A DNA stretch of 63,821 bases from Myxococcales bacterium (GTDB lineage Bacteria > Myxococcota_A > Polyangia > Polyangiales > Polyangiaceae). Location: the NCBI GenBank assembly GCA_016704525.1, contig JADIZX010000009.1, positions 170,625 to 234,445 of the forward strand, written 5' to 3'. A program made the translations under genes and the position numbers. Every line of letters begins with the position of its first letter. The stretch's first letter is position 1. Below are positions 18,704 through 63,821 of this stretch, one piece after another. The notes beneath the pieces were generated by a model. The model saw nothing but the letters and a program-made list of their open reading frames with translations. It made no database searches and had not been told where the DNA came from.

Positions 18704-19294
18704 ATGAGCTTCATCAACTACATGGCGCGCGAGATCAACTGCAAGTTGGTCTACTACGGCCCGGGCCTGTGCGGAAAGACCACGAACCTCCAGTACATCT
18801 ACGAGCGCACCAACCCCGACGCGAAGGGCAAGATGATAAGCCTCGCGACGGAGACGGAGCGCACGCTCTTCTTCGACTTCCTGCCGCTTTCGCTGGGCGA
18901 AATCCGCGGGTTCAAGACGCGCTTCCACCTCTACACGGTGCCCGGGCAGGTCTTCTACGACGCCTCGCGGAAGCTCATCTTGAAGGGGGTCGACGGCGTG
19001 ATCTTCGTCGCCGACTCGCAGATCGAGCGCACGGAGGCGAACCTCGAGTCGGTCGAGAACCTTCGCACCAACCTCGCCGAGCAGGGCTACTCGCTCGATA
19101 AGCTCCCGTATGTTGTACAATACAACAAACGCGACCTCCCCAACGTCGGCACCGTGGAGGAGCTCCGCGAGCTCATCAACCCCACCAACGTGCCGGATTT
19201 CGAGGCCGTGGCGCGCACCGGCGTGGGCGTGTTCGACACGCTGAAAGCCGTCGCGAAGCTCGTCCTCACCGAGCTGCGCAAGGGCGGCACCTGA
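18704..19294 (+). CDS. mglA: MglA, the mutual gliding-motility Ras-like small GTPase.
   Basis: MSFINY...[23 protein letters not shown]...[26 protein letters not shown] shows very high identity to M. xanthus MglA as recalled. Confidence 0.95.
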
Positions 19295-33957: not shown

Positions 33958-34353
33958 GCGGCTAGTCCCCTGGAAGCGTGATCCCTTCCAGAAGTCGCGC
34001 GGCTCGGCCTTTCGCCACAAGGGAGCGAGGGGGTGTCCCGTTTTCGGCGGCGGTGGGAGGATACTCATGTTCGAGGGTCGGCGTTCTCGCGCGGTCACAC
34101 CCGAAACCACTGTCCCCTGAGCGCAAAGCGCCGCCTCCACCGCGCGGAACGACGTCCGAGTTGAGGACGGGCCCGCCGCCGCCGAAAACGGGGCACCCCC
34201 TCGCTCCTCGGAGTGACACCGAAGACCCGACTTCTGATACGAACCACGACTCCAGGGGACTAGTCTCCTGGAAGCGTGATCCCTTCCAGAAGTCGCGCGG
34301 CTCGGCCTTTCGCCACAAGGGAGCGAGGGGGTGTCCCGTTTTCGGCGGCGTGA
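33958..34353. repeat. MITE-like palindromic element, copy 1: a ~93-bp unit, a ~120-bp core, the inverted unit, then an extra direct unit.
   Basis: The unit GACTAGTCCCCTGGA...GAGCGAGGGGGTGYCCCGTTTTCGGCGGCGG occurs at 33961-34053, inverted at 34171-34265, and again at 34258-34350. The track ORFs here (33962..34318 -, 33978..34622 +) translate identically to ORFs at 52.3 kb. Confidence 0.75.
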
Positions 34354-46123: not shown

Positions 46124-47644
46124 TCAGAGCAGCACGCGGAACGTGGAGGCGGCCTCGCCGTCCTGGAGCTCGACGCCGAGCTCCATCAGCTCCTTGCGGA
46201 GCGCGTCAGCGCGGGCGAAATCCTTCTGGTCGCGCGCCTCACGGCGCTCGGCCACCTTCGCCTCGATCTGGGCGCCGTCGAGCCCGCGAATGCGGAGCCG
46301 CTGCGCGCGCGTGCGCTCGAAGAACTCCTCGGCGGGCGCTCGCATGAGGCCGAGCGGGCCCACCGATCCGTCGAGCGCGTTCACACACGCGGCGGCGAGC
46401 TTGCGCGCCTCGTCTTGGGCGGGCTTGTCCTTCTTCAGCTTCGCGACCTGCTGGACGATCTCGTTGCCCGCCTTCGCGAGCTCCGCGAGCACGGAGAGCG
46501 CGACCGGGGCGTTCAGGTCCTTGTCGAGCGCGCCGAGGACGTTCGCGGCGGCGGACTCGACGACCTTCGCCTGACCTTGCAGCACGTTGCCGACCTTGGG
46601 CTCGTGCCCCGCGGCGGCGCGGAGGAGCGCCTCTCGTGTAGAATACAGGTACTCGACCCGACGCTCCGCCTCGTCGACGCCGGGGAAGACCACGCGCCCG
46701 TCGGGGCGCTTCTCCACGTCGAAAGCGAGGGGGCCGCGGTAGTGCGTGCCGAGCAGAAAGTACCGGAAGCCTTCGGGATCGTTGCGTTCGAAGACGTCGC
46801 GGATCGTCACGAAATTGCCGAGCGACTTGCTCATTTTCTCGCTGTCGACGTTCAAGAACCCGCCGTGCATCCACACCTTCGCCAGCTCCGGGCCGTGGGC
46901 GGCCTCGCTCTGCGCGATCTCGTTCTCGTGGTGCGGGAACATGAGGTCCATGCCGCCGCAGTGGATGTCGAAGTGCGGTCCGAGGTAGCGCTCCGCCATC
47001 GCGGAGCACTCGATGTGCCAGCCGGGCCTGCCCTTCCCCCAGGGGCTCTCGAAGCCGAAGGCCTCGTCGGTCGAGCCCTTCCAGAGCGCGAAGTCGAGCG
47101 GATCGCGCTTGATGTCACCGACCTCCACGCGCGCGCCAGAGAGCAGCTCGTCGATCTTCCGGCGTGAGAGCTTCCCGTAGCTCGGGAACGAGCGCACGGC
47201 GAAATACACGTCGCGCCCCTTGGGGGTGTCGGCCGCGTAGGCGTGGCCCCGCTCGATCAGCGCCGCGATGAGGGTCACGATCTCGTCGATGTGCGTGGAG
47301 ACCCGGGGCGAGTGATCGGGCGCTTGGCAGCCGAGGCGCGCGAGATCGGCGTCCGCCATGTCGCTCATGCGCCGCGAGAGCGCGAGCGGCTCCTCGCCGT
47401 TCTCGGCGGCGCGTCGCACGATCTTGTCGTCCACGTCGGTCACGTTGCGCACGTGCGTCACCCGGAGCCCTCGCGCGCGGAGGTGGCGCACCAGCACGTC
47501 GAAGGTGGTGTACGTGCGCGCGTGCCCCGCGTGGGCGAGATCGTACGTGGTGATGCCGCAGACGTAGAGACGGGCCTCGCCAGGCACCGTGGGCTCGAAG
47601 GGCTCGAGCTTCTGAGAGAGCGAGTTGTAGAGGCGTATCGACAT
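46124..47644 (-). CDS. cysS: Cysteine--tRNA ligase.
   Basis: HIGH motif ITTYDLAHAGHAR, the KMSKS motif, and the Cys-binding region ...WHIECSAM... Confidence 0.95.
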   Translation of the reverse strand: MSIRLYNSLSQKLEPFEPTVPGEARLYVCGITTYDLAHAGHARTYTTFDVLVRHLRARGLRVTHVRNVTDVDDKIVRRAAENGEEPLALSRRMSDMADADLARLGCQAPDHSPRVSTHIDEIVTLIAALIERGHAYAADTPKGRDVYFAVRSFPSYGKLSRRKIDELLSGARVEVGDIKRDPLDFALWKGSTDEAFGFESPWGKGRPGWHIECSAMAERYLGPHFDIHCGGMDLMFPHHENEIAQSEAAHGPELAKVWMHGGFLNVDSEKMSKSLGNFVTIRDVFERNDPEGFRYFLLGTHYRGPLAFDVEKRPDGRVVFPGVDEAERRVEYLYSTREALLRAAAGHEPKVGNVLQGQAKVVESAAANVLGALDKDLNAPVALSVLAELAKAGNEIVQQVAKLKKDKPAQDEARKLAAACVNALDGSVGPLGLMRAPAEEFFERTRAQRLRIRGLDGAQIEAKVAERREARDQKDFARADALRKELMELGVELQDGEAASTFRVLL

Positions 47645-47721
47645 GGCCGCGCGACTCTACACGAAGCTCGGCCGCGTTCGGCCTCCGAGTGTTCCAGGGG
47701 CGTGGTAACCTTCGCCCGGCC

Positions 47722-48282
47722 ATGTCTCCGTCCAGCGCGAGCGTCCGCCTCCGCGTTTTCGTGCAGATTGCAGCCATCTCGGCGGCAGTCCTAGGGAGCG
47801 GCGCGCTCGGTTGCGGTGGGGGCCGCTCGTTCGATGCCGGCGTCTTCCGGCAGGGCGAGCACATCGCGTTCCGCGTCCCCGAGCCGCCCGCCAGCTGGCG
47901 GCGCCTGGAGATGGCGCAGGCGAGCCTCGCCTTCCGCGACGACGCGGCGGGCGCGAGCGTCCTCGTGAACGCGCAGTGCAAGCGCGCCGACGACGACACG
48001 CCGCTCGCGGCGCTCACGAACCACCTCCTCATCGGCACGACCGAGCGGCAGCTCGAGTCGCAGACCGTGGCCCCCTTCGACGGCCGCGAGGCCCTGCAGA
48101 CCAAGGTCCGCGCGAAGCTCGATGGCGTGCCGTTCGCGTTCGACATCTTCGTGCTGAAGAAGGATGGCTGCATCTACGACTTCGTGCTGGTGGCCCCCGA
48201 AGAGAGCGCCGAGGCGAGCCGTCCCACGTTCGAGGGGTGGGTGCGCGGGTTCCGCACGCTGCCCGGCGCGGGGGTCCTGTGA
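47722..48282 (+). CDS. Lipoprotein (hypothetical).
   Basis: Signal ...IAAISAAVLGSGALGC. The stop overlaps the GTG of the following MlaE-like gene (GTGA). Confidence 0.55.
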   Translation: MSPSSASVRLRVFVQIAAISAAVLGSGALGCGGGRSFDAGVFRQGEHIAFRVPEPPASWRRLEMAQASLAFRDDAAGASVLVNAQCKRADDDTPLAALTNHLLIGTTERQLESQTVAPFDGREALQTKVRAKLDGVPFAFDIFVLKKDGCIYDFVLVAPEESAEASRPTFEGWVRGFRTLPGAGVL

Positions 48283-49151
48283 GCGGCCTCGCCGCCACGC
48301 CGTCCCCCGGGGCGGACGCGCCTCCGCCTTCTCGCCGAGCCTCGATCGTCGCGCCGCCCGAGCCGCCGAAGCCCGATCGCAAGCTCGAGGCGCTTCAGTT
48401 CCTCGAGCACCTCGGCGAGGTCACCGTGCTCTCGGCGCGCACCTTCCGCATGCTCTGGAAGCGACCCTTCGAGACGCGCTCGACGCTCCACCAGATGGAA
48501 ATGCTCGGCGTGAAGTCGATGGGCATCGTCAGCGTGACGAGCATCTTCATCGGCATGGTCATGACGATCCAGTTCGCGTTCGGTCTGAAGCGCTTCGGTG
48601 GGCTCGAGTACATCCCGCGAGTCATCGTGCTCTCGTTCCTCCGCGAGCTCGCGCCCACCCTCACCGCCGTCATCGTGGGGGGGCGCATCGGCAGCGGCAT
48701 GACGGCCGAGGTCGGGGCGATGAACGTGACCGAGCAGGTGGACGCGATCCGCGCGCTCGGCGCCGATCCGGCGAAGAAGCTCGTGCTCCCGCGGGTCTTG
48801 GCGAGCGTCCTCATCATGCCGGTGCTCAGCGTGTACGCGCTGATCCTGGGCACCGTCGGCGCGATCGTGATTTGCGCCGCCCAGTTCGGGATCGCGCCCA
48901 AGAATTTCGTGCTCTCGGCGCTCGAGGTCATCAAGATGGGTGACTTCTTCAGCGGTCTCCTGAAGACGCCGGTGTTCGGGTTCATCATCGGCATCGTCGG
49001 GTGCCACTACGGCCTGCGCACCTCGGGCGGCACCGAGGGCGTGGGCCTCTCGACCACGCGCACCGTGGTGGCAGTGAGCATCTCCATCCTCATCGCGGAC
49101 TTCCTGCTGACCAAGCTCTTCATGCTCTTCATGCCGATGGCCGGTGGCTGA
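48279..49151 (+). CDS. mlaE: MlaE-family ABC transporter permease.
   Basis: ...MEMLGVKSMGIVSVTSIFIGMVMTIQ...LAPTLTAVIVGGRIGSGMTAEVGAMNVTEQVDA... is canonical MlaE/YrbE. Confidence 0.8.
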   Translation: MSGLAATPSPGADAPPPSRRASIVAPPEPPKPDRKLEALQFLEHLGEVTVLSARTFRMLWKRPFETRSTLHQMEMLGVKSMGIVSVTSIFIGMVMTIQFAFGLKRFGGLEYIPRVIVLSFLRELAPTLTAVIVGGRIGSGMTAEVGAMNVTEQVDAIRALGADPAKKLVLPRVLASVLIMPVLSVYALILGTVGAIVICAAQFGIAPKNFVLSALEVIKMGDFFSGLLKTPVFGFIIGIVGCHYGLRTSGGTEGVGLSTTRTVVAVSISILIADFLLTKLFMLFMPMAGG

Positions 49152-49156
49152 GGCCG

Positions 49157-49582
49157 ATGGCTGATCTGGCCAGCGCCGAGGCGGCCGAGGCGGGGGGTGC
49201 GGGCGACGCCACACACCGCGCGCGCGCGGGGTTCTCGACCGGCCGCGGCATCGTCGCCGCCGGGATGCTGGTCGCGCTGCCCCTCACCATCGCGGCGCTC
49301 GGGACGCACGCCTCGCTCGCGCGACGCGCCGAGGCCGCCCGCGCGCCCGCCAAGCGGCTCGTAGTGAGCCGCCTGCCGTCCGCCGATCTCGCCTTCGCTG
49401 GAGGCTCGCGCCACCTCCGCTTTCTCTCGCTCGAGGAGCCACAAGCCGCCTTCGCGGACGGCCCGGGTCTGCCCGATCCCGATCCGGCGGGCGGCCTCGT
49501 CGGGGTGCCACGCGAGACCTTCGCGGGCGCCTACACCCGCGAGGCGCCCGCGAAGACCAAAGGCCGCGAGGCGCGGCCATGA
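49157..49582 (+). CDS. Hypothetical small membrane-associated protein.
   Basis: High GC3. One TM helix (IVAAGMLVALPLTIAALG). Located between two permease genes. Confidence 0.4.
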   Translation: MADLASAEAAEAGGAGDATHRARAGFSTGRGIVAAGMLVALPLTIAALGTHASLARRAEAARAPAKRLVVSRLPSADLAFAGGSRHLRFLSLEEPQAAFADGPGLPDPDPAGGLVGVPRETFAGAYTREAPAKTKGREARP

Positions 49583-49657
49583 ACCCCCAAACGAGCCAGC
49601 GGCACGCGGCGTGTCTATGCCACCCGACCGAAGCGAGCGCGGCATGAACGAAGGTCG

Positions 49658-50860
49658 ATGGCGAGCCCGAGCCGAGGGCGAGGTGGCGCCGTGAACCTCG
49701 GCCTGCTCGCGTTCGCGCTCCGCGCCGTCGCGAGGCGCAGAGCTCGCGCCGTGGCCACCGGCGGTGGGCTCACGTTCGCCGTGGCCCTCGTGGCCGCCGT
49801 CCTCTTCCTCGCGGACGCGCTGCGCGCAGAGTCGACCGCGGCCCGCGACGCCCTGCCGGACGTGGTGGTCTCGCGCCTCGTAGGCGGCCGGCCGGCGGTC
49901 ATCTCCATGCAGTCTGCACACAAACTCGCGCGCATCGACTCCGTGCGGCGTGTGAGGCCACGGGTATGGGGCTACGTGTTCGTGCCCGCCCTCCAGTCGA
50001 ACGTGGTGGTCATGGGTGCGCCGCCGGACGCCCCCTCCCTCGAGGCGGTGGGGGGCGCGCTCGCCGCGGGGCGCGACCTGCGGCCCGGCGCCCACGAGAT
50101 GGTCGCGGGCGCGCGGATCGCCAAGTTCCTCGGGCTCGAGGTGGGCGACCAAATGGTCCTGCCGTCGCCCAACCCCCTCGCGCCCTCGCTCCAGCTCGTG
50201 GGCACGTTCGACTCGCGGATCGATCTGTTCACCACCGACGTCGTGATGATGTCGAACGACGACGCGCGCGCGGTGCTCGGCATGGCCGAGGACCAGGCCA
50301 CGGACCTCGCGCTCGACCTCGCGAACCCCGACGAGTCCCCCATCGTCGCGCGCACCGTGCTCGAGCGCATGCCGGACGCCCGGGTGATCGACAAGAAGCT
50401 CCTCGTGCGCGCGCACACGCTCGCCTTCGGACGTCGCTCCGGGATCGTCCTCGCCGCCTCCGCGCCCGTGCTGCTCGTGCTCCTCGTGCTCGCGTGGGAC
50501 CGCCTGAGCGGCTTCGGCGACGCCGAGCAGCGCGAGATCGCCGTGCTGAAGGCCGTGGGCTGGAGCACGAGCGAGGTGCTCTGGGCGAAGCTCTCCGAGT
50601 CGCTCCTCGTTGGCGCCTTCTCCACCGCTGCGGGCCTCGTGCTGGCGTACGTGTGGGTGTTCGTGGCGGGCGCGCCGCTCTTGCGTCCCGCCCTCGCGGG
50701 CTTCGGCGTGCTTTACCCGGAGGCGCCGCTCACCCCGCAGGTGGACGCGGCGCAGCTCTTGGCGGTCACGCTCGCCGTGCTCGGACCGTACGCCGCGCTC
50801 TCGATCGTTCCCGCGTGGCGCGCCGCCCAGATCGATCCGATGGACGCGATGCGAGGTTAG
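49658..50860 (+). CDS. FtsX-like (LolE/MacB-type) ABC transporter permease.
   Basis: GAAGG RBS. One N-terminal TM, a large periplasmic loop, and three C-terminal TMs (an FtsX domain ending ...AWRAAQIDPMDAMRG). Confidence 0.7.
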   Translation: MASPSRGRGGAVNLGLLAFALRAVARRRARAVATGGGLTFAVALVAAVLFLADALRAESTAARDALPDVVVSRLVGGRPAVISMQSAHKLARIDSVRRVRPRVWGYVFVPALQSNVVVMGAPPDAPSLEAVGGALAAGRDLRPGAHEMVAGARIAKFLGLEVGDQMVLPSPNPLAPSLQLVGTFDSRIDLFTTDVVMMSNDDARAVLGMAEDQATDLALDLANPDESPIVARTVLERMPDARVIDKKLLVRAHTLAFGRRSGIVLAASAPVLLVLLVLAWDRLSGFGDAEQREIAVLKAVGWSTSEVLWAKLSESLLVGAFSTAAGLVLAYVWVFVAGAPLLRPALAGFGVLYPEAPLTPQVDAAQLLAVTLAVLGPYAALSIVPAWRAAQIDPMDAMRG

Positions 50861-50922
50861 CGCGGACGTCGGGCGCGTCGGTCACCCTCGATGCTCACGT
50901 CGACTCATGCGAGCATGCCAGC

Positions 50923-51504
50923 ATGGAAGTCGACCGCGACGCCGCCGCGAGCCACATCGAAGGTTTCCTCCGCGCCATAGGCCGTGATCCCGACGCCGAT
51001 CCCGAGCTCGCCGAGACGGGCCGACGCGTGGCCGAGGCGTTCGTCGACGAACTGTGTGCAGGATACACTCTTTCGCCGCAGCTGCTCCTCCGCGAGAGCG
51101 CGATCGAGGGGACCGCGGAGCTCGTCGTCGTGCGCGACGTGCGGCTCGCCACCACCTGCCCCCACCACCTGATGCCCGCGATCGGCCACGCTACGGTGGC
51201 GTTCGCGCCGGCCGGCCTGCTCGTGGGCGTCGGGACGATCGTGACCGTGCTCGAGGCGTGCGCGCGGCGCCTCGTGCTGCAGGAGGCGCTCGGCGAGGAC
51301 GTGGTCGAGGCGCTCGACGCCGAGCTCCGGCCGCGCTGGGTAGGGTGCCGCCTGGTGCTGACCCACGGCTGCATGGTCGCCCGCGGCGAGCGCGCGCACG
51401 GCGCCGTCGTCGAGACCCTCGCCCTCCGTGGGTTCGCAGAGGGCGACGTGAGCGGGCGCCTCATGGCCCACCAAGTGCTCGGGCTCGGGCAGAGGGCCCT
51501 GTGA
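50923..51504 (+). CDS. folE: GTP cyclohydrolase I (FolE)-like T-fold protein with a non-canonical CPHH in place of CEHH.
   Basis: ...LVVVRDVRLATTCPHHLMPAIGHATVAFAP... aligns with the FolE active-site block. The canonical Glu is replaced by Pro, and QERLT is replaced by QEALG. Confidence 0.6.
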   Translation: MEVDRDAAASHIEGFLRAIGRDPDADPELAETGRRVAEAFVDELCAGYTLSPQLLLRESAIEGTAELVVVRDVRLATTCPHHLMPAIGHATVAFAPAGLLVGVGTIVTVLEACARRLVLQEALGEDVVEALDAELRPRWVGCRLVLTHGCMVARGERAHGAVVETLALRGFAEGDVSGRLMAHQVLGLGQRAL

Positions 51505-52199
51505 GCGCGCCGCGCGGCGTCGCGGTCGTGACAGGCGCGGGGAGCGGCATCGGCCGCGCGGTCGCGAAGGCCCTCTTCGCGCGAGGACTCGACCTGGCGC
51601 TGCTCGGGCGCACCAAGGCCACGCTGGAAGCGACGGCGCGGGAGGTGCTCGACGGGGCGACCGCAGGGCGAGCGCTCGCGCTGCGGTGCGACGTCTCCGA
51701 CCCGGCCGGGGTCGCCCACGCCTGCCGCAGGGCGGTCTCGGAGCTCGGCGTCCCGCGCGTGGTGGTGCACAGCGCAGGCGTCGTGGTGCGCGCACCGGTC
51801 GAGGCGACCACCGACGACGCGTGGCGCTCGGTGCTGGGCATCAACCTGGACGGGACGTTCCACGTCACGCGCGCGCTGCTGCCTGCGATGCGCGAGCGCG
51901 GCGAGGGGCGCTTCGTGGCCATCGCGAGCATCTCGTCGACGCTCGGCACCCCCAAGCTCTCCGCCTACTGCGCCGCGAAATGGGGCGTCGTTGGCTTCAT
52001 GAAGGCGCTCGCCGAGGAGCTCCGCGGCTCCGCGCTCGCCGCGATGTCGGTCCTGCCTGGCTCGGTCGACACGGCCATGCTCGACGGCAGCGGCTTCGCG
52101 CCAGCGATGCAGCCGGAAGACGTGGCCAACACGGTAGTGTACGCCGCGCTCGACGCGCCCCTCGCGATGAACGGGAGCGCGATCGAGATCTTCGGCTGA
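51501..52199 (+). CDS. SDR family oxidoreductase, translationally coupled to the folE-like gene. A pteridine/sepiapterin reductase role is possible.
   Basis: GTGA overlap with the folE stop. VAVVTGAGSGIGRAVA... and a YCAAK motif are present. Confidence 0.75.
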   Translation: MSAPRGVAVVTGAGSGIGRAVAKALFARGLDLALLGRTKATLEATAREVLDGATAGRALALRCDVSDPAGVAHACRRAVSELGVPRVVVHSAGVVVRAPVEATTDDAWRSVLGINLDGTFHVTRALLPAMRERGEGRFVAIASISSTLGTPKLSAYCAAKWGVVGFMKALAEELRGSALAAMSVLPGSVDTAMLDGSGFAPAMQPEDVANTVVYAALDAPLAMNGSAIEIFG

Positions 52200-52249
52200 G
52201 CTGCGCTTCACCATCGCGCGGCGTCCGAGAGGTCTTCGACGAGGGTGGG

Positions 52250-52570
52250 CGCTGGCTTGGACTAGTCCCCTGGAGTCGTGGCTCGTATCAGAAGTCCGGT
52301 CTTCGGTGTCATGCCGAGGAGCGAGGGGGTGCCCCGTTTTCGGCGGCGGCGGGCCCGTCCTCAACTCGGACGTCGTTCCGCGCGGTGGAGGCGGCGCTTT
52401 GCGCTCAGGGGACAGCGGTTTCGGGTGTGACCGCGCGAGAACGCCGACCCTCGAACATGAGTATCCTCCCACCGCCGCCGAAAACGGGACACCCCCTCGC
52501 TCCCTTGTGGCGAAAGGCCGAGCCGCGCGACTTCTGGAAGGGATCACGCTTCCAGGGGACTAGCTGGTTC
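52250..52570. repeat. MITE-like palindromic element, copy 2 (inverted relative to copy 1).
   Basis: The sequence is the reverse complement of 33961-34262, sharing the GACTAGTCCCCTGGA and GAGCGAGGGGGTGCCCCGTTTTCGGCGGCGG unit ends. It abuts the TAG stop of the phosphodiesterase gene. Confidence 0.75.
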
Positions 52571-53402
52571 TCACGAGCCGGCGCACCACGTCCGGGTGGT
52601 CGGTGGTGATGGCGTCGACCCCAGCCTCCAGCAGCCCGCGCACGATCGCCCGATCGGACGTGGTCCAGGGGGCGACCGCGAGCCCGGCGCCGTGCGCCGC
52701 TGCGACGCTCGCCTCGGTCACGAACGACCAGTGCGGGAGGAGCACGTCGGCCTTCGCGCGGCGCGCCATCTCCAGCTCGTCGACGGGACGGCACGCGTAG
52801 AGAATTCCCGTGAGAATACGCCTAGATAGGAGCTTAATTTGCCTCACCAGCGCGTGGTCGAAGCCGATCACCATCGCGCGGTCGAGCATGCCGAGGCTCG
52901 TGAGCAAGTCGACGACCGCGACGTCGATGCCCGGGGTGTCGACGGGGCAGTTCTTGAGCTCAATCTCGACCCCCACGCCCGCCCCGTCGGCCCACACGAG
53001 CGCCTGCTCGAGCGTGGGGACTCGCTCGCCGGCCCAGGCATCGCCGAACCAGCTCCCCGCGTCGAGCTGCGCGAGCTGCGCGCGCGTGCGCGACCGCACG
53101 GGCCCTCGACCCGACGTGGTGCGGGCGAGCGTGTCGTCGTGGATCACGACGGGCACTCCGTCGCGCGAGAGCTGCACGTCGAGCTCGATCCAGTCGGCCC
53201 CGAGCTTGGCGGCCCGGGCGAAGCTGCCGAGCGTGTTCTCGGGGCTCGTGCCCATCGCTCCCCGATGACCGACCACCGCGGGCCTGCCAGAGCGCCGCAC
53301 GCGGCCGACGGCGGTGTCGGGCTCAGCCTCGGCGTTCTCAGGGGCGCCTCTCGGCGCGCGCTTGGTCGACGAAGTCACTCCGCGTCCCGCTCGTGTTGCC
53401 AT
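52560..53402 (-). CDS. Glycerophosphodiester phosphodiesterase (GDPD) family protein.
   Basis: ...VVGHRGAMGTSPENTLGSFARAAKLGADWIELDVQLSRDGVPVVIHDDTL... The start ATG 53402 is uncertain. A 430-bp divergent intergenic region lies upstream. Confidence 0.75.
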   Translation of the reverse strand: MATRAGRGVTSSTKRAPRGAPENAEAEPDTAVGRVRRSGRPAVVGHRGAMGTSPENTLGSFARAAKLGADWIELDVQLSRDGVPVVIHDDTLARTTSGRGPVRSRTRAQLAQLDAGSWFGDAWAGERVPTLEQALVWADGAGVGVEIELKNCPVDTPGIDVAVVDLLTSLGMLDRAMVIGFDHALVRQIKLLSRRILTGILYACRPVDELEMARRAKADVLLPHWSFVTEASVAAAHGAGLAVAPWTTSDRAIVRGLLEAGVDAITTDHPDVVRRLVRTS

Positions 53403-53836
53403 GCGCGGAGTAGAGCACGACGAGGCGCCCGCGCGCGCGTGAGCGCGCCGAGAAGTTGCCCCGCGCGGGCCGCGGGTGATTGGGTGCCGGCATGCGACAC
53501 GCCGTCCACACCTCCTCGAGCGCGAGCGCCCACGCGACCGCTCCCGCGGCTCGGCCCCGCGAGCGCGGCCCCTCGCTCCGACACGCTCCCGTACGCCGCC
53601 ACGACCCCCGCGAGGAGCCGCTCCCGCAGCCACTTCCCTTGCTTCGCGACGCGCTCGACGAGCTGGGTGACGCCGGGCTCCAGCGGTCCGCGCGCGCCCT
53701 CCACGTGATCGAGATCTACGAGCCCTGGTCGCGTATGCGTGACCTTCGACGCGAGCGCTGAACCAGCGCTCACGCTCTTCGAGCCGGCGTAACGCCGAAC
53801 GCTCCAACGGCGCGCCGCGCCTGGTAGGCTCTCCCG

Positions 53837-54832
53837 ATGGGCACCTCGCGCGCGGCCACGGCCATGCTGACCGCCGGCCTCGTGGCGGCGCTGCTGGGCG
53901 TCTCGTGTGGCCGGTCGCTCCCGTCCTCACCGCACGCGCCGGGCGGCCCGCGGCCCGAGGCGGCGCACCTCGCGAACGAGGGCTGCACGACCTGCCACGA
54001 GGCCATCGGCCAGGAGTGGCGCGCGTCGAACCACGCCGAGGCGTTCCGACACGGCACCTTCCAGCTCGCCTACACCATCGAGCCGCTCGCTTTCTGCGCT
54101 CGGTGTCACGCGCCCGAGGCCGACGCGTCGCGACCGCTGCCGCCCGCGTCGGAGCTCGGCGTGGCGTGCGTCACCTGCCACCCGGGGGGACGACGCTGGC
54201 GGACCCCCACGCCCGCGGGGAGCACGCCGCTCGCTCGCGCCGACGCGGCCTGCGCTTCTTGCCACGAGTTCCCCTTCCCGAGCGACGGCGCGGGGACTCC
54301 ATCGCGCCTCATGCAGAAGACCATGAGCGAGCACGCGATCGCCTCGGCCAAGGGCACGCCGTGCGTCGGGTGCCACATGCCCTCGGTCGCAGAGCCTGGC
54401 GGCGGACGCCACGTGGATCACCGGTTTTTCGCCTCGCGCAGCGCCGAGCTCGTGCGGCGGGCCGCGCGGATCGAGGTGCGTCGTGAGGGCGCGGCGGCGG
54501 TCTTCACGTTCACCCGCGCGAGCGCCGGCCACGCGCTCCCGACCGGCGATATTTTCCGAAGACTGCGCCTCGTCGTGGAGTCGGACTCGGCGAAGCGGAC
54601 CACGTGGCTCGCGAGGAGGACCCGAGAGTCGGCCGCCGACGGGACGGAGCCCGACACGCGGCCTTTCGCCGATGGGCGCGACGTGTACGTGGCGGTCGTC
54701 CCGCTGCACGACCTACGCGGGGACCTCCGCTATCGGGTCGTCTACGAGCGCGTCGCGCACCCCAACGGCGAGGACGACGAGGGCGCGACGGTCGACGGGG
54801 CGATCGAGCTCACCCGCGGCGAGCTCCGCTAG
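53837..54832 (+). CDS. Multiheme c-type cytochrome lipoprotein with 5 CxxCH motifs.
   Basis: CTTCH, CARCH, CVTCH, CASCH, CVGCH. Lipobox ...LLGVSCG. Confidence 0.85.
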   Translation: MGTSRAATAMLTAGLVAALLGVSCGRSLPSSPHAPGGPRPEAAHLANEGCTTCHEAIGQEWRASNHAEAFRHGTFQLAYTIEPLAFCARCHAPEADASRPLPPASELGVACVTCHPGGRRWRTPTPAGSTPLARADAACASCHEFPFPSDGAGTPSRLMQKTMSEHAIASAKGTPCVGCHMPSVAEPGGGRHVDHRFFASRSAELVRRAARIEVRREGAAAVFTFTRASAGHALPTGDIFRRLRLVVESDSAKRTTWLARRTRESAADGTEPDTRPFADGRDVYVAVVPLHDLRGDLRYRVVYERVAHPNGEDDEGATVDGAIELTRGELR

Positions 54833-54910
54833 CCCGGACAATTCAGGAGGCTCGACGGCAGCTTGGTGGTCGCACCTTGCGCACCGACGGGGCGGGCGTA
54901 GCGTGGAGCC

Positions 54911-55585
54911 ATGCGCTCCCCGTCCGTGGTCGTCCGGATCTCCGTCACACGTTCGCGCGCGCGCTCGACCGCGCGAGCCTGCACGATCACCGCGCTCGGC
55001 GCGCTCGCCACAGCGCCGGCGATGGGCGCCTGCGCCCGGCCCGATCCCATCACCGTCGAGCTGCCGCGACCCTCGGCGAGCGGTCCGCGCCCCGACCTCT
55101 TCCCGACCGCGTCCGTCGCCACGCCGGCGCCCGCTCCCACCGCGACCGAGCCCGCGAAGCCGACGCCCTTCCCTCTCACCCAGCTCCAGACCAACGCCCC
55201 CTCGCTCGGCGGCCCATGCGGCGCGAGCACGCGCGCGTTCTGCGGGACCAGCGGCCGCGTGGCGGTGACCGCGCACCAGTTTCAGTTCCGCGGGCCGGAG
55301 CAGCCCGCGTGCCAGCCCGTCAGCCTGGGCCGCCCGGACGTCGCGGCCGCGCACGTGACCTCGGCCTGCGTCGAGGGCGACCACCTCTTCGTCACCACGA
55401 GCTGCATCATCTGTCGCTCGCCCTCGGGCACCTCCATCGAGGGGCTCGTCTCGGACATGACCCCAGGCCAGCTCGCCTTCGTCCAGAAGCAAGCCGGCCT
55501 CGACGGGCCGCCCCTGCTCAGCGCGCAGGAGTGGGACCTGGCGATTCGCTCGGCGCACTCCAACTCACTGAAAGAGAAGCACTAA
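54911..55585 (+). CDS. Cys-rich lipoprotein (hypothetical).
   Basis: Lipobox ...APAMGAC. Eight further Cys, including CIICRSPSG. Confidence 0.5.
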   Translation: MRSPSVVVRISVTRSRARSTARACTITALGALATAPAMGACARPDPITVELPRPSASGPRPDLFPTASVATPAPAPTATEPAKPTPFPLTQLQTNAPSLGGPCGASTRAFCGTSGRVAVTAHQFQFRGPEQPACQPVSLGRPDVAAAHVTSACVEGDHLFVTTSCIICRSPSGTSIEGLVSDMTPGQLAFVQKQAGLDGPPLLSAQEWDLAIRSAHSNSLKEKH

Positions 55586-55670
55586 CCGGCGCGCGGGCTC
55601 GACCTGGCCGACCGCCACGATGGCGCGACCGCTCGCGTCGTTCGTGGCGCAACGGTAAAGTCGAGATCCT

Positions 55671-56321
55671 TTGGACGCCCCGCCCGACCTCATCGCCGCG
55701 CTCCCCTGCCTGCCGCTCTTCCCTCTCCCCGAGGTCGTGTTGCTCCCGGGGGCGCGCCTGCCCCTGCACGTGTTCGAGCCGCGCTACCGCGTGATGCTCG
55801 AGCGGTGCATGGCCACCCACCGCGCGCTCGCCGTCGTGCAGCTGCTGCGCGGGACCGACGCGCAGGGCCTCCCGCGCCTCGCGAGACTCGCTGGCGGCGG
55901 CATCATCACCGAGCACCACGCGCTGGCGGACGGTCGGGCGAACATCCTCGTCGAGGGCTTGGCGCGCCTCGAGCTCGAGGAGCTCGCGTTCGAGCCACCC
56001 TACCGGCGCGCGCGCGCGACCGTGCTGCCCGACGCGCCGGGCCAGCTCGCGGAGCCCGACCGCAGGGCCCTCCTCAGCGCCGCGACCACCTTCGCGCGCC
56101 TCGTGCGCGGCCACGATCGATCGTTCTCGTTCCACGTCGACCCAGCCGAGCCGCGCCTCGTCGAGCTCTGCGCGTTTCAGCTCGTCGTCGACGCCGAGCT
56201 CCGCCAGTCCCTCCTGGAGGAGCCGAGCTTGGCTGTGCGCGCTCAGAAGGTCACGGAGGCGCTGATGGTTCAAGCGGCCACGCTCGGGCAGCAGAGCGGC
56301 GCGGGGCGCGATGTCAACTGA
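55671..56321 (+). CDS. Stand-alone LON substrate-binding (Lon N-terminal) domain protein.
   Basis: LPLFPLPEVVLLPGARLPLHVFEPRYRVM is the classic Lon N-domain start. A TTG start was inferred. Confidence 0.7.
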   Translation: MDAPPDLIAALPCLPLFPLPEVVLLPGARLPLHVFEPRYRVMLERCMATHRALAVVQLLRGTDAQGLPRLARLAGGGIITEHHALADGRANILVEGLARLELEELAFEPPYRRARATVLPDAPGQLAEPDRRALLSAATTFARLVRGHDRSFSFHVDPAEPRLVELCAFQLVVDAELRQSLLEEPSLAVRAQKVTEALMVQAATLGQQSGAGRDVN

Positions 56322-56679
56322 AGGCCGCGCGCCAAAGCTCGTCGGGACGCTCACGCTCGAAGCCCTCGAAGGCCAGGCGCACGTGCGAATGCCCTACCCG
56401 CCCTTCGACGTGCTCGTCGCGATGGTGGAGGGCGTGCCGCGCGCGATCGAAGACGCGTGCAACCACGCCGGCGCCAGCTTGAGCCCGGGCCCCCGCACGA
56501 AGGACGGGCGGTGTGTCGTGTGTCCGGTGCACGGGTACGTCTTCCAGCTCGTCGACGGGAAGCTGCGCAGCCCTCGTGGGCTGTGCGGCGACCAGCGCAC
56601 CTTCGAGGTGCGGAGAGAGCCCGACGGCACCCTCTCGGTCTGGGACACCTTCGACCTCACGGTGAGCGCCGCGCCTTGA
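56311..56679 (+). CDS. Rieske [2Fe-2S] domain protein.
   Basis: CNHAG...CPVHGYVF (CxH...CxxH). It overlaps the previous gene by 11 nt. Confidence 0.75.
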   Translation: MSTEGRAPKLVGTLTLEALEGQAHVRMPYPPFDVLVAMVEGVPRAIEDACNHAGASLSPGPRTKDGRCVVCPVHGYVFQLVDGKLRSPRGLCGDQRTFEVRREPDGTLSVWDTFDLTVSAAP

Positions 56680-56749
56680 CCGCGGACCGCCCGCGGAGGC
56701 GCGCCGCCGCCTGGCGCGCGAGGGCGCTGAGGCGCTAACCTTCGGCGCC

Positions 56750-57526
56750 ATGGCACCGTTCTTCATCTTCGGCGGCATCCTGCTCCTCGTGGGCGTGATC
56801 ATCACGGCCGCCAACCTCAAGAACTTCCGGCGCCGTCAGCGCATCCTGCAGACGCCGACCTCGCCGATCGCGCAGGCCCCGGGCGCCGGCCCCGTCGAGG
56901 TGAAGGGTCGCATCGTGCCGGGCGAGCAAGGCGTACTTCAGACGCCCTTCAGCGGTCGGCACGCGGTGTGGTGCCGCATCACCGTGCTCGAGCACCGCTC
57001 CTCGGGCCGCAACAGCTATTGGGCCACCATCATCAAGGAGACCGACCAGCGCGAGTTCTTCGTGGACGACGGCTCGGGTCAGATGGCGAAGATCGTGCCC
57101 CACGGGGCCGAGGTCATCCTCGACGCGCAGAACGTCGCGAGCTCCGGCACGTTCAACGACGCGTCGCCGCACCTTCAGGGCTTCCTCGCCTCGCGCGGCC
57201 ACTCCACCCAGACGTTCCTCGGCTTCAACAAGTCGATGCGCTACACGGAAGAGGTCCTCTCGCCGAACGAGCCTCTGTACGCGCTCGGACCTTCACGCCG
57301 CGAGGCCGGCCCGCCGGTGAACGACGGCTACCGCATGGCGCCCTCGAGCCAGCTCGTATTGGGCGCCGGTCACGGCGAGGCGCACGAGCTCATCCTCACC
57401 AACAAAACCGAGGAGCAGCTCGTGTCGCGGCTGCTCTGGGGGTTCGTGGGTGGCCTCATTTGCGTGGGCGTCTCGCTGGTGTGCGGCGCAATAGGTCTTA
57501 TCTTTGCGATCGCCGAAATGATCTAG
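56750..57526 (+). CDS. Hypothetical membrane protein with one N-terminal and one C-terminal TM helix.
   Basis: MAPFFIFGGILLLVGVIITAANL... and ...LWGFVGGLICVGVSLVCGAIGLIFAIAEMI. Confidence 0.6.
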   Translation: MAPFFIFGGILLLVGVIITAANLKNFRRRQRILQTPTSPIAQAPGAGPVEVKGRIVPGEQGVLQTPFSGRHAVWCRITVLEHRSSGRNSYWATIIKETDQREFFVDDGSGQMAKIVPHGAEVILDAQNVASSGTFNDASPHLQGFLASRGHSTQTFLGFNKSMRYTEEVLSPNEPLYALGPSRREAGPPVNDGYRMAPSSQLVLGAGHGEAHELILTNKTEEQLVSRLLWGFVGGLICVGVSLVCGAIGLIFAIAEMI

Positions 57527-57539
57527 CCGAGGGCGACCG

Positions 57540-58553
57540 CTAGAAGCGACCGAGCAGCGCGCCGCCCGCGCCGCCGGGGCCCACGACAGGCACGAGGCTG
57601 ACGCGATCTCGCTCGCGCGGGTTCGGCGTAGCCCACGGGCGCAGCACGAGCGCCGACACCACCGCGGCGCCCAAGAACACGCCGCCGCCAACGTAGCCAA
57701 CGATCGACCCCGTGCCGAGGCCCGACGCCTTCGACGCGGCGTCCTCGAGGGGCTGGCAGCCGGGCGCCCCGGGCCGAGGGCAGGGCGCGCCGACGCTGAG
57801 GAGCCGGAGCTCGTCGTCCGAGCTGGCCGACATCGCGCCCATCACCGCGCCCGCCCCGAGGCCGGCGACGCCGACCACGCCGAGCACCACGGGCACCGTC
57901 CACGAAGCCCCGGCTTCGCGCTCCGCGGGAGGCGGCGATGGCGGCGGCGGCGACGTGTCGCCCTCGAGCGCGACCACCACCGTGCGCTCGGCGGGGCACG
58001 CCACGGGGCGCTTTCGCCGGCGCTGGCCGAAGGTCACGACGACCTCGTGCGGTCCGGCGAGCACCGCGATGGGGTCGGCGAGCGGGGCCTCGCCCGCGAC
58101 GACGCCGTCGACGCGCACCTGGGTCCCGCGCGGCGTGCCCGGCGCGAGAGTGATGAGGCTCACCTTCGCGCCGAGGTCCGCGAAGAGCTTCTTGGCGAGC
58201 GTGGTGTGCGCGGGATCGGTCTGCGGCAGCTTCAGGAACTCGCGAAAGTGGTGGTACGCGCCGAGCACGTGGCCTACGCGGTGCTCGGCGCGCGCGAGGT
58301 TGAACAGCACGTCGGGCTCCTTCAGGACCGCCCACGCCTGCGCGTACTTGAGCCTCGCCTGCTCGTGCTCGCCGCGCCCCCAGAGCGCGTGGCCCTCGTC
58401 GAACCGCTGCTTGGCCTCTGCGCTGAACGCATCCTCGGCGCGGGCCTCGGCGCCGCCCGCCGCCAAGGTGACGAGCCCCACGGTCAGCCCGAGCGCCGCC
58501 CGGACGAGCCACGTGCGCGCTCGCGTCCTCGCTTGCGCTTCACGCTCGCTCAC
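57540..58553 (-). CDS. PEGA-domain membrane protein with an N-terminal TPR-like helical region. It is the last gene of the tandem-lipoprotein operon.
   Basis: GTG start overlapping the stop of tandem copy A (GTGA). Signal peptide, PEGA-like block VSLITLAPGTPRGTQVRVDGVVAGEAPL...VVTFG, and a TM helix. Confidence 0.65.
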   Translation of the reverse strand: MSEREAQARTRARTWLVRAALGLTVGLVTLAAGGAEARAEDAFSAEAKQRFDEGHALWGRGEHEQARLKYAQAWAVLKEPDVLFNLARAEHRVGHVLGAYHHFREFLKLPQTDPAHTTLAKKLFADLGAKVSLITLAPGTPRGTQVRVDGVVAGEAPLADPIAVLAGPHEVVVTFGQRRRKRPVACPAERTVVVALEGDTSPPPPSPPPAEREAGASWTVPVVLGVVGVAGLGAGAVMGAMSASSDDELRLLSVGAPCPRPGAPGCQPLEDAASKASGLGTGSIVGYVGGGVFLGAAVVSALVLRPWATPNPRERDRVSLVPVVGPGGAGGALLGRF

Positions 58554-60035
58554 GGCGCCACCTCCAGCTCGGACTGCGACAGCCCCGCGGGGCCGTCATT
58601 CACTCCCGCCGCTCCGCCTACGCCTCCCGCTCCCCCGGCTCCTGCCTTCAGCGTCCCGTCTCCCGTCGGCTTCGTTCCCTTGTAGACTACAGCTACCGAG
58701 ATCCCGCCCGCTCCGCCCGCTCCCGCTCCGCCCGCTCCGCCCTTCCCGCCGTCTCCCCCGCCGCAGCCCGGCGTTCCGCCACCGGCCACCCCACCAAGTC
58801 CGCCCCCGCCCCCGTACCCCCGGTACCCCCGGTACCCCCGGTACCCCCGGTACCCCCGGTACCCCCGGCAGCGGCCGTGAGCGTCACGTTCGTCATCGTC
58901 ACGTTCGAGCTCACGCTCAGCAGCGCGATGCTCCCGCCTCCGCTCTTGCCCCCCTTCCCTCCCGTACCCCCGCATCCCCCGCAGGCGCCTCCGCCTCCAA
59001 AGCTGTCCGCTCCGCGTGAGCCTCCGCCCCCGCCACCTTGACCGGGCAGTCCGCTCGCTCCCGCGGGCGCCTCCGACGGCGTCCACTCCCCGCTCCCGGA
59101 TATCCCTCCCGGCGTCGTCACCTTCGCAGCTGGCGCTCCCTCGGCTCGCTCTGCTCCGGTGTTCCCCGAGCCGTTCGGCTCCGCAGCTACGCACCTCGCC
59201 AGGCCGACTCCACCCGCTCCGTCGGTCGGCGCGACCCCCGCCCAGCGCCTCGCCTCCAGGGCTCGCCAATAGCCAGGGGCTCCACCTCCACCTCCACCGG
59301 ACGCCCCCGAGCTGCACGTGCACGGCTTCGCCGCTCCCCCGCGCTCGCGCTCGCGGGGTTCCCGTTCCCGTTCCCCGTCGCGTACGTCCCTGTCGTCCCG
59401 CCCGCTCCAGCCTCCCCAGCGAATCCACCCTTCGCCTCCACTCCCACCTTCCGAAGGCTCACCTTCACCGCCTCCACAGCCCACACTCCCACGCTCGTAC
59501 GCGACCCCGCCGTCCCCGCCGCTCCTTCGATGTCCAGCTCCGCCAGCGTCGCCGTCACCTTCCCCACCTTCACCGCGTACTCGGGCTTCGTCCCCACCAC
59601 CTTCGCTCGCCCTCCAGCCTTCCCGAAGTCGCACGTCACTCCCGAGTACACCTCCACGTCGCTCTTCACCTCCACGCTCTCCGCGTACGTCCCCTCGCAC
59701 ACCACCACCCGCCCGCGACCCGCAGAGAGCCCCTTCCCCACCGTCTTGTAGGGCTTCGTCCTCGTCCCGGGGTTCCCGTCGTCCCCACTCGGCGACACGT
59801 ACACTCCGTAGCTGTCCACTAGGCACTTCTCAGGGTTCTTCACTGGCTCGTTCGGCGTCTCGCACCCGGGCGGAACCACCACGTCCACTCCCCCGTCCAC
59901 CGACCCCTCCCCGACCCCGCCCTCTCCCACCCCTCCGTCCGAAGCCTCCGTCACGTAATAGTTGTTCGTCGTGCACCCCGACCCCGAAACCAGGCCCGCC
60001 AGCACGAACGCGCACAGCGCCACCCCCGGCCTCAC
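58550..60035 (-). CDS. Gly-rich beta-helix lipoprotein, tandem copy A. The reading frame is interrupted at least twice.
   Basis: Lipobox ...LAGLVSGSGC. The N-cap is VYVSPSGDDGNPGTRTKPYKTVGKGL...VVVCEGTYAES. Then Gly-rich repeats, a (GGT)n tract encoded by (GGTACCCCC)5, and the C-terminus ...SELEVAP. The good segments lie in 3 different frames (track ORFs 59187..60080, 58693..59826, 58550..59428). Confidence 0.55.
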
Positions 60036-61480
60036 GGCGCCACCTCCAGCTCGGACTGCGACAGCCCCGCGGGCCGTCATTCACTCCCGCCGCTCCGCCT
60101 ACGCCTCCCGCTCCCCGGCTCCTGCCTTCAGCGTCCCGTCTCCCGTCGGCTTCGTTCCCTTGGCACTACAGCTACCGAGATCCCGCCCGCTCCGCCCGCT
60201 CCCGCTCCGCCCGCTCCGCCCTTCCCGCCGTCTCCCCCGCCGCCGCCCGGCGTTCCGCCACCGGCCACCCCCCCAGGTCCGCCCCCGCCCCGGTACCCCG
60301 GTACCCCCGGTACCCCGGTACCCCGGCAGCGGCCGTGAGCGTCACGTTCGTCATCGTCACGTTCGAGCTCACGCTCAGCAGCGCGATGCTCCCGCCTCCG
60401 CTCTTGCCCCCCTTCCCTCCGTACCCCCGCATCCCCGCAGGCGCCTCCGCCTCCAAAGCTGTCCGCTCCGCGTGAGCCTCCGCCCCCGCCACCTTGACCG
60501 GGCAGTCCGCTCGCTCCCGCGGGCGCCTCCGACGGCGTCCACTCCCCGCTCCCGGATATCCCTCCCGGCGTCGTCACCTTCGCAGCTGGCGCTCCCTCGG
60601 CTCGCTCTGCTCCGTCATGACCAAGGCCACCTGAACCGCAGGCCATCCCCGCCAGGCCTCCCGCGCCGTCTTTCGGCGCCACTCCGCCGAGCGCCTCGAG
60701 CCCGCTCCCAGCCGTATCCAATGGAGCGCCGCCTCGGGCCCCAGCGGTCACGCCTCCCGAGCTGCACGTGCACGGCTTCGCCGCTCCCCCCGCGCTCGCG
60801 CTCGCCGGGTTCCCGTTCCCGTTCCCCGTCGCGTACGTCCCCGTCGTCCCGCCCGCTCCAGCCTCCCCAGCGAATCCACCCTTCGCCTCCACTCCCACCT
60901 TCCGTAGGCTCACCTTCACCGCCTCCACAGCCCACACTCCCACGCTCGTACGCGACCCCGCCGTCCCCGCCGCTCCTTCGATGTCCACGTCGCTCAGCGT
61001 CGCCGTCACCTTCCCTATCTTCACCGCGTACTCTGGCTTCGTCCCCACCACCTTCGCTCGCCCTCCAGCCTTCCCGAAGTCGCACGTCACTCCGAGTACA
61101 CCTCCACGTCGCTCTTCACCTCCACGCTCTCCGCGTACGTCCCCTCGCACACCACCACCCGCCCGCGACCCGCAGAGAGCCCCTTCCCCACCGTCTTGTA
61201 GGGCTTCGTCCTCGTCCCGGGGTTCCCGTCGTCCCCACTCGGCGACACGTACACTCCGTAGCTGTCCACTAGGCACTTCTCAGGGTTCTTCACTGGCTCG
61301 TTCGGCGTCTCGCACCCGGGCGGAACCACCACGTCCACTCCCCGTCCACCGACCCCCCCGACCCCGCCCTCTCCCCCCTCCGTCCGAAGCCTCCGTCACG
61401 TAATAGTTGTTCGTCGTGCACCCCGACCCCGAAACCAGGCCCGCCAGCACGAACGCGCACAGCGCCACCCCCGGCCTCAC
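60032..61480 (-). CDS. Gly-rich beta-helix lipoprotein, tandem copy B, with multiple frame interruptions.
   Basis: Near-identical to copy A. It differs mainly in C/G homopolymer lengths and has (GGTACCC[C])4. Its stop overlaps copy A's GTG start, and its own start overlaps copy C's stop. Confidence 0.5.
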
Positions 61481-62921
61481 GGCGCCACCTCCAGCTCGGA
61501 CTGCGACAGCCCCGCGGGGCCGTCATTCACTCCCGCCGCTCCGCCTACGCCTCCCGCTCCCCCGGCTCCTGCCTTCAGCGTCCCGTCTCCCGTCGGCTTC
61601 GTTCCCTTGTAGACTACAGCTACCGAGATCCCGCCCGCTCCGCCCGCTCCCGCTCCGCCCGCTCCGCCCTTCCCGCCGTCTCCCCCGCCGCAGCCCGGCG
61701 TTCCGCCACCGGCCACCCCACCAAGTCCGCCCCCGCCCCCGGTACCCCCGGTACCCCCGGTACCCCCGGTACCCCCGGCAGCGGCCGTGAGCGTCACGTT
61801 CGTCATCGTCACGTTCGAGCTCACGCTCAGCAGCGCGATGCTCCCGCCTCGCTCTTGCCCCCTTCCCTCCCGTACCCCCGCATCCCCCGCAGGCGCCTCC
61901 GCCTCCAAGCTGTCCGCTCGCGTGAGCCTCCGCCCCCGCCACCTTGACCGGGCAGTCCGCTCGCTCCCGCGGGCGCCTCCGACAACGTCCACTCCCGCTC
62001 CCGGATATCCCCTCGGCGTCGTCACCTTCGCAGCTGGCGCTCCCTCGGCTCGCTCTGCTCCGGTGTTCCCCGAGCCGTTCGGCTCCGCAGCTACGCAGCT
62101 CGCTAGTGCGACTCCACCCGCTCCGTCGGTCGGCACGACCCCGCCCAGCGCCTCGCCTCCAGGGCTCGCCAATAGCGCCGGGGCTCCACCTCCACCTCCA
62201 CGAGACGCCCCCGAGCTGCGTGCACGGCTTCGCCGCTCCCCGCGCTCGCGCTCGCCGGGTTCCCGTTCCCGTTCCCGTCGCGTACGTCCCCGTCGTCCCG
62301 CCCGCTCCAGCCTCCCCAGCGAATCCACCCTTCGCCTCCACTCCCACCTTCCGTAGGCTCACCTTCACCGCCTCCACAGCCCACACTCCCACGCTCGTAC
62401 GCGACCCCGCCGTCCCCGCCGCTCCTTCGATGTCCAGCTCCGCCAGCGTCGCCGTCACCTTCCCTATCTTCACCGCGTACTCGGGCTTCGTCCCCACCTT
62501 CGCTCGCCCTCCAGCCTTCCCGAAGTCGCGTCACTCCCGAGTACACCTCCACGTCGCTCTTCACCTCCACGCTCTCGCGTACGTCCCCTCGCACACCACA
62601 CCCGCCCGCGACCCGCAGGAGGCCCCTTCCCCACCGTCTGTGGGGCTTCGTCCTCGTCCGCGTTCCCGTCGTCCCCACTCGGCGACACGTACCTCCGTGG
62701 CTATCCGCTGGCCTTCTCAGGGTTCTTCACTGGCTCGTTCGGCGTCTCGCAGGCGGTCCACCGCGTCCACTCCCCCGTCCACGACCCCTCCCCGGCCCGC
62801 CCTCTCCCCCCTCCGTCCGACTCGGCGTCGCACGTTCCATTGTCGCAGAGCGACAGATCGAGCACCCGCGAACACGAGCGCGGTGGTCGTCGCGAGCCCA
62901 AGTGCAGCCAGTCTTCTTCAT
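61477..62921 (-). pseudogene. Gly-rich beta-helix lipoprotein, tandem copy C. It has a diverged N-terminus and is heavily frame-disrupted.
   Basis: The C-terminal two-thirds are homologous to copies A and B. The N-terminal signal differs (MKK..LAALGLATTTALVFAGC, readable only by combining frames). Many indels relative to A and B. Confidence 0.4.
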
Positions 62922-63614
62922 GTCGAGAAACCACGGGCGGCACCAGGGCGAACCAGATCGAAGCGGCGAGTAGCCGGGAGCGAACGGCCAGGAGCGAGCG
63001 TGGGACCGCGGAGGAAATACGACCATCGGCGTCCTGGGACGGGTCTCCACGGGCGCATGGTAAGGCACGCTTTCCACGACAACGGCCCCGAGCGCCGCCG
63101 AGCCCCGATGAGCCCGACCGCGCTTTCACGGTCCGCTGGGTCGAGGCGGCGTCGAGGCTTGTCGGGAAGCGCCACGCAACCCGCGCTCGCGCGGTCCTGC
63201 CACGCCAGATCAGCTGGAGCCCCGTCGCGTCGTCGCGCGGCCCACGCCCCCGAAGTGGAACGTCGCGCCCACGCCCGACCTGAGCCCCCCGCGGCGAGGA
63301 CGCAGGCAAAGCCGTGCGTTCTCGCCCGCCTCGGCAGGCGGCGTGTTTCGGGCGGGGCGTCGGCACCGCAGGAAGGGGAGGTCCATCCGCCGGCGGTCTC
63401 ATTGCGCGTCGCGACGACGGTCTCGTTCGCCGCGCACTTCACCGGCGAGCTTCTCGCCCGCTTCGGCCCCTGCGCGCGGACGGTGCTCCCCGACCCCGAC
63501 GAGCACGAGCCCTGGCCAGGCGATGTGCGTCCACGCGCAGCTCAGCGCGCGGTCGAGCGCGCGACGGTGCTCGCCTGGTCGAGCGGCACTGCGCGTCTCG
63601 GCGATCCGAGGCCA

Positions 63615-63821
63615 TCACCTTGTCGTTCTCCGGGCCGCGCAGTCGTCGCCGGGAACGCGGCGGCCTCGAGGTAGTGGGTACGTGCGGATCGTGGCCTCCG
63701 CCTGGTTCAAGAGCGAATTCACTGGGTTCTGTCCGCGCGCGTAGGCCTCACCGAAACTTGGCGCGAGCGCCACTCGTAGATCGCCCTTCGTGAACAGCTG
63801 CGCGCCCTCCTCGTGCAGCTT
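63615..63821 (-). CDS. Possible 3' end of a gene continuing beyond the window edge.
   Basis: Minus-strand frame from the window end reads KLHEEGAQLFTKGDLRVALAPSFGEAYARGQNPVNSLLNQAEATIRTYPLP...* with mostly G/C third positions. It has no start inside the window and is not in the ORF track. Confidence 0.25.
   Translation of the reverse strand, partial: KLHEEGAQLFTKGDLRVALAPSFGEAYARGQNPVNSLLNQAEATIRTYPLPRGRRVPGDDCAARRTTR

Follow-up and report, generated by a model that had tools for sequence, protein, structure and literature searches.

Frame interruptions in a tandem array of Gly-rich beta-helix lipoprotein genes from a wastewater Polyangia bacterium are very probably long-read consensus errors

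The window analysed here is a stretch of 63,821 nucleotides (nt) of DNA from a Myxococcales bacterium, and it carries near its end, on the minus strand, a tandem array of three genes encoding Gly-rich beta-helix lipoproteins, each of them interrupted in its reading frame. Comparison of this sequence with that of close relatives indicates that the frame interruptions are in all likelihood consensus errors of long-read sequencing which would be absent from the DNA of the organism, and that the tandem array itself is real. The array most likely belongs to a genuine and functional operon of a wastewater Polyangia (Myxococcota) bacterium. The array and the genes on either side of it are as follows.

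58550-60031, minus strand: copy A of the Gly-rich beta-helix lipoprotein gene, with a v2 central cassette and 6 units of the 9-nt repeat
60029-61480, minus strand: copy B, with a v1 central cassette
61477-62921, minus strand: copy C, the first gene of the array, with its own signal peptide and a v2 cassette
57540-58553, minus strand: intact gene of 337 amino acids (aa) immediately downstream of the array, from the list of open reading frames (ORFs)
62940-63821, minus strand: garbled 3' ~85% of a 345-aa gene that runs off the window end, from alignment to intact orthologues

Repeat finding and a three-way alignment delineate three head-to-tail copies of ~1.45 kb, spaced by 1445-1479 nt from start to start and sharing long blocks of 95-100% identity, in agreement with the three tandem paralogues described in the initial annotation of this DNA; a strong excess of C over G coincides exactly with the array stretch. 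At each junction the stop codon of one gene overlaps the start codon of the next within the tetranucleotide GTGA, and this includes the TGA of copy A, which overlaps the GTG of the 337-aa gene. These overlaps, already pointed out in that annotation, are seen in the sequence, and the idea of an operon is supported. Its statement that copies A and B differ only in the length of their homopolymers has to be amended: the central cassette of copy B (v1) is a distinct, in-frame segment of ~170 nt with a 9-nt deletion, and copies A and C carry the v2 cassette. Copy C does possess a signal peptide different from that of A and B, as is seen by comparison with orthologues, the orthologue beginning with MKKIIALGLATTTALVFAGC. 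The 9-nt tract, CCCCGGTAC on the plus strand, encodes Gly-Gly-Thr; it counts 6.7 units in copy A (58809-58868) and 4.8 in copy C (61736-61778), and is damaged in copy B (60288-60326), where its period is now 8/17.

That every copy is frame-interrupted was correctly recognized at the outset, none of the three being readable in a single frame. Two metagenome-assembled genomes (MAGs) were available for comparison, GCA_963852875.1 (hereafter L001), which was reached via a fragment sharing 99% identity with the query, and GCA_016720545.1 (L013). An alignment of ten copies, taken from the window, from L001 and L013 and from one short-read contig, places in the 4.4 kb of the window array 36 insertions or deletions (indels) whose length is not a multiple of three relative to the majority of the ten (4 in copy A, 12 in B and 20 in C). 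Deletions account for 32 of them; most remove 1-2 nt, and many fall in G-runs. Copy A is broken by the loss of 1 nt near 59341 and near 59276, by the gain of 1 nt near 59239 and by the reading of CC as C where the 9-nt tract ends; in copy B, 11 of the 12 events are deletions of 1-4 nt, and in copy C the density of errors climbs toward the 5' end. The breaks are not restricted to C/G homopolymers and the tract, as had been described, since deletions of GT, GTTCC, A and T occur at non-repeat sites. When the indels alone are repaired and no substitution is changed, the three copies open into ORFs of 492 (C), 487 (B) and 489 aa (A), with zero stop codons across 1,468 codons.

The breaks are local to the end of the window. 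Over the 11.3 kb that precede the array (47249-58549), the window differs from L013 by ~1 substitution per kb and by no 1-nt indel at all, this flank being 99.92% identical; against L001, 19 substitutions are counted over 4979 nt, together with one indel of 9 nt and one of 20 nt, both in a gap between called genes. The compared flanks of the three assemblies are 99.6-99.9% identical. Furthermore, the neighbouring genes of the window have full-length Pfam matches, and a scan of the window for further frameshifts, based on G+C content at third codon positions and on a codon score, detected none among the genes tested. The locus of L001 is syntenic, with the 290-aa gene, the 345-aa gene, four copies and the 337-aa gene followed, as in the window, by GIDE, Rieske and LON-domain genes. 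Its copies were called as 287+201, 487, 64+436 and 499 aa, so that the second (c2, 487 aa) and the fourth (c4, 499 aa) are fully open; the copy closest to copy B of the window is the third (c3), at 23 substitutions. In L013 the array amounts to ~2.9 copies. The events that are not multiples of three number 3, 1 and 7 per copy in L013 and 3, 0, 1 and 2 in L001, and the break positions are almost never common to the assemblies, the few shared sites being G-runs (alignment columns 157, 712 and 1107).

The damage extends beyond the repeats. The ~700 nt upstream of copy C (62922-63614) had been taken for a non-coding region holding the operon promoter; they turn out to be a corrupted version of a 345-aa gene, to which they align lengthwise in the two related assemblies and in seven further contigs, where it is intact and ends 18 nt before the start of copy C. 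The operon starts farther upstream, outside the window. A rejected candidate for the same stretch was a diverged paralogue of the 337-aa gene: the identity is 87% to the 345-aa orthologue, the paralogues sharing only ~33% at the protein level. Over the 345-aa gene, the window and L001 are 87% identical with 54 gap openings by BLAST, and L013 and the seven further contigs match L001 at 99.6-100% identity with 0 gaps. In the three-way alignment of 62621-63821, the window stands alone against the other two in 218 of the 1251 columns, L001 in 4 and L013 in 2. The errors are limited to the last 5.3 kb, where they begin with the array at 58550 and reach ~17% past 62,600; in the last 1.2 kb, substitutions, insertions and deletions are mixed, and the indels are not multiples of three. 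This last ~1.2 kb looks like essentially unpolished long-read sequence.

A first alternative is that genuine decay in this strain, through indels and substitutions, has affected the whole array together with the upstream 345-aa gene. Pseudogenisation of this kind would explain why neither the three copies nor the upstream gene can be read in the window, and some copies are broken in the two other assemblies as well. We nevertheless hold it to be very improbable, because vertical descent cannot produce 13-17% of decay next to flanks sharing 99.9% identity with L013, because the disabling events are private to each assembly and not common to near-identical relatives, because indels vastly outnumber substitutions and leave no stop once they are repaired, and because the reading frame is intact in contigs that encode the same neighbouring protein.

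These contigs come from a different kind of data. The exact 337-aa protein is encoded on two contigs with MEGAHIT-style names, one of which is labelled wastewater. One such contig (L002, metagenome ERR712380) keeps a single frame through the final 579 nt of the array, and this stretch spans the end of the 9-nt tract at which copy A shifts. At the opposite edge, seven contigs of 1.3-2.9 kb from Logan, JGI and ENA, which were taken as short-read assemblies and two of which carry MEGAHIT-style names, contain the 345-aa gene, gap-free and at 99.7-100% DNA identity to L001, together with the first 29-63 codons of the first copy in frame; the window there needs at least 3 changes of frame. All these contigs end at the array edges, as expected of a true repeat.

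A second alternative is a phase-variable contingency locus, in which slippage at G/C runs and at the tract described in the initial annotation as GGTACCCCC would switch the copies on and off, the assemblies having captured different states. The products are likely surface proteins, and the break positions do vary among the assemblies of near-identical genomes, with a few recurring at G-runs. Yet the longest homopolymer of the intact copies is 6 nt, and known contingency tracts are usually longer than that; moreover, the unit of the tract is of 9 nt, and changes in unit number are therefore neutral for the frame, contrary to the control of frame that had been implied for it. Neither feature fits slipped-strand switching. 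The number of units varies from 3 to 7 among the ten copies of the three assemblies, and every undamaged tract keeps the frame. Up to 20 breaks in one copy, many of them at non-repeat sites, are unlike a switch, and the non-repeated upstream gene is wrecked by the same noise. The ORF contains neither a long homopolymer nor a repeated unit that is not a multiple of three, and the changes of length are scattered over 36 sites and the neighbouring gene. We consider this explanation extremely unlikely.

The initial annotation had left the choice between a genuine contingency or decay locus and an under-polished long-read assembly in a repeat, and the data support the latter: the breaks are private to each assembly, the short-read contigs are in frame, and repair of the indels alone opens the ORFs, all of which contradicts the former. 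What is found is a set of short, deletion-biased indels, enriched in homopolymers, localized to a repeat and a probable contig end beside clean flanks and absent from independent assemblies and from short-read ones, the short-read contigs reporting on the array edges only. The errors would be residual long-read errors, most likely from Nanopore R9.4.1, that escaped polishing in two ways. Short reads may not have been uniquely placeable in near-identical tandem copies, and the window may run into a poorly covered contig end at which quality would fall to the level of raw reads. An identical 337-aa protein is recorded as MBK6463251.1 (locus tag IPF92_19935) on a MAG contig of 234 kb, and the copy of the upstream gene in the same MAG sits on a separate 104-kb contig; that assembly accordingly appears to break at the array, and a contig end probably coincides with the end of the window. 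A Danish study of activated-sludge MAGs combined Nanopore R9.4.1 reads, assembly with CANU, Racon with the option --include-unpolished, medaka and a final round of Racon with Illumina reads (PMC8012365). By its accession series and locus-tag style only, L013 resembles the MAGs of that study. Short-read polishing is documented to leave homopolymer errors behind in repeats (PMC8812927; PMC9262707).

Several points weigh against this explanation by consensus errors. The errors are deduced from comparison and are not seen directly in reads, and both the platform and the position of the contig end are themselves inferences. L001 and L013 are long-read MAGs with breaks of their own and make imperfect references, and the short-read contigs cover the two array edges and none of the interior. 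Finally, the increase in noise is not continuous up to the window end, the last ~120 nt being cleaner, with 7 differences in 122 columns.

The three assemblies do not agree on the arrangement of the array. The order of the cassettes is v1 v1 v1 v2 in L001 (10001-15909), v2 v1 v2 in the window (58550-62921) and v2, v1/v2 hybrid, v2 in L013 (5742-10004), where the last copy is truncated at its 5' end and lacks the first ~170 nt. The disagreement in copy number (3, ~2.9 and 4) and in cassette order would be expected if the array were an artefact of assembly and the genome held a single copy, an outcome that the initial annotation had envisaged and to which we give a near-negligible probability. 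Indeed, each of the three long-read assemblies, which are presumably independent, contains at least ~3 copies; the first copy has a signal peptide of its own, and the copies differ in their v1 or v2 cassettes and in their numbers of 9-nt units. Short-read contigs terminate on reaching the array from either side, and two copies lie ~1 kb apart on a related Polyangiaceae chromosome. The evidence thus speaks against a duplication of one gene by the assembler. Its copy number is 3 or 4, and the disagreement between assemblies reflects either mis-assembly of the repeat or real recombination in the population. In the latter case the array could be a truly hypervariable surface-protein locus, which unequal crossing-over and gene conversion would be diversifying rapidly in a single Polyangia population from wastewater. 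This is a tentative proposal that we judge rather unlikely, and it holds only if the differences in copy number, cassette order and units are real and not the result of mis-assembly.

The repaired proteins match 447 homologues, mostly of 480-530 aa and mainly from Polyangia MAGs. Structural modelling of a homologue, which finds its 3D matches among solved beta-helix proteins, predicts a right-handed parallel beta-helix of the pectin-lyase type, and the product is accordingly modelled as a Gly-rich and Cys-rich right-handed beta-helix lipoprotein with a DUF1565-like N-cap. The family databases give less. The repaired window protein and the L001 copies c2 and c4 match 0 Pfam families, a search of the repaired protein against Pfam and NCBIfam returned no DUF1565 or beta-helix match, and NCBIfam NF047854 is matched weakly. 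The homologues P0001 and P0002 do exceed the cut-off of PF07602 (29.5 and 30.1 bits vs 20.3), for the N-cap only. As for the lipoprotein nature of the products, it is probable for the first copy, whose orthologue has a canonical lipobox ([LVI][ASTVI][GAS]C) in a signal peptide ending in LVFAGC; the signal peptides of the other copies end in LVSGSGC, a non-canonical lipobox, with a Cys that is nearly invariant in the family. The downstream 337-aa gene had been described as encoding a PEGA/TPR membrane protein. PEGA finds no support in Pfam, and TPR is retained as a weak match to TPR_2 (E 0.024); the protein also has hydrophobic C-terminal segments. The 337-aa and 345-aa genes are paralogues, 32-34% identical.

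The operon would run from the 290-aa gene through the 345-aa TPR-like membrane protein and 3 or 4 translationally coupled lipoprotein copies of ~490 aa to the 337-aa paralogue. Its products may be exported, lipid-anchored, disulfide-stabilized beta-helical proteins of the surface or periplasm that act with the flanking membrane partner. A Gly-rich beta-helix gene adjoins a homologue of the 337/345-aa TPR-like genes in several other genomes as well (L004, L005, L007, L009 and L010; Polyangiaceae, Myxococcales and Polyangiales MAGs), and this suggests that the beta-helix and TPR-like genes form a conserved two-gene module.

The chief value of this analysis is one of caution, as the frame interruption of every copy is a matter of data quality. 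In the recorded gene calls, L013 (5742-10000) has only a 310-aa fragment and small antisense ORFs, and 2 of the 4 copies of L001 (10001-14413) are split; because of frameshift-type errors in public MAGs, such lipoproteins are under-represented or fragmented in databases. The remainder is ordinary biology, namely the lineage-specific tandem amplification of a conserved and uncharacterised gene pair of Polyangia, which offers a modest lead for studies of myxobacterial envelope proteins and answers no open question.

Other features of the window deserve mention. Within the otherwise ~99.9% identical flank, positions 54000-55999 hold a local cluster of ~30 substitutions relative to L013, and the 9-nt and 20-nt indels relative to L001 lie at ~54834-54886, between a cytochrome-c gene and a hypothetical gene. 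An element of ~304 nt resembling a miniature inverted-repeat transposable element occurs at 52261-52564 and at 33961-34264, and a further copy possibly starts at 34259; it has terminal inverted repeats (ACTAGTCCCCTGGA) and an inner inverted repeat of 36 nt, and the terminal repeats have 5 matches in the window, vs 0.1 expected by chance. The copy at 52.3 kb is without counterpart in the 99.9% identical L013 and hence looks like a polymorphic insertion. Elsewhere, a gene for a Roadblock/LC7-domain protein adjoins a gene for a Ras-like small GTPase (18107-18685 and 18704-19294); such an MglB/MglA-like pair is typical of Myxococcota and fits the taxonomy assigned to this DNA.

When set against known systems, the encoded proteins share the N-cap motif VYVSPSGDDGNPGT..KPYKTVGKGL...CEGTY with DUF1565 (PF07602) and with exported surface proteins of the LIC10774/LIC10365 type, which have a right-handed beta-helix resembling that of pectin lyase. 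They differ in that the homologues match only the first ~45-54 positions of the profile, the C-terminal two thirds being left uncovered and rich in Gly and Cys (GQGGGGGGS, GGCGGCGG, 7 invariant Cys). Simple-sequence-repeat contingency loci are known, for instance, in Neisseria and Haemophilus, and the array has in common with them its multi-copy, tandem organization, its likely surface products and breaks at G/C runs; it departs from them by runs of at most 6 nt, a 9-nt unit and dozens of breaks that are absent from short-read data. The window also resembles Nanopore R9.4.1 assemblies that keep residual errors in repeats and at contig ends after short-read polishing: its deletion-biased indels of 1-2 nt, many of them in G/C runs, fall in a near-identical tandem repeat to which short reads map ambiguously, with clean flanks, at assembly-specific positions and with no counterpart in short-read contigs, although the last ~1.2 kb of the window, with its ~17% of mixed errors, goes far beyond homopolymer errors.

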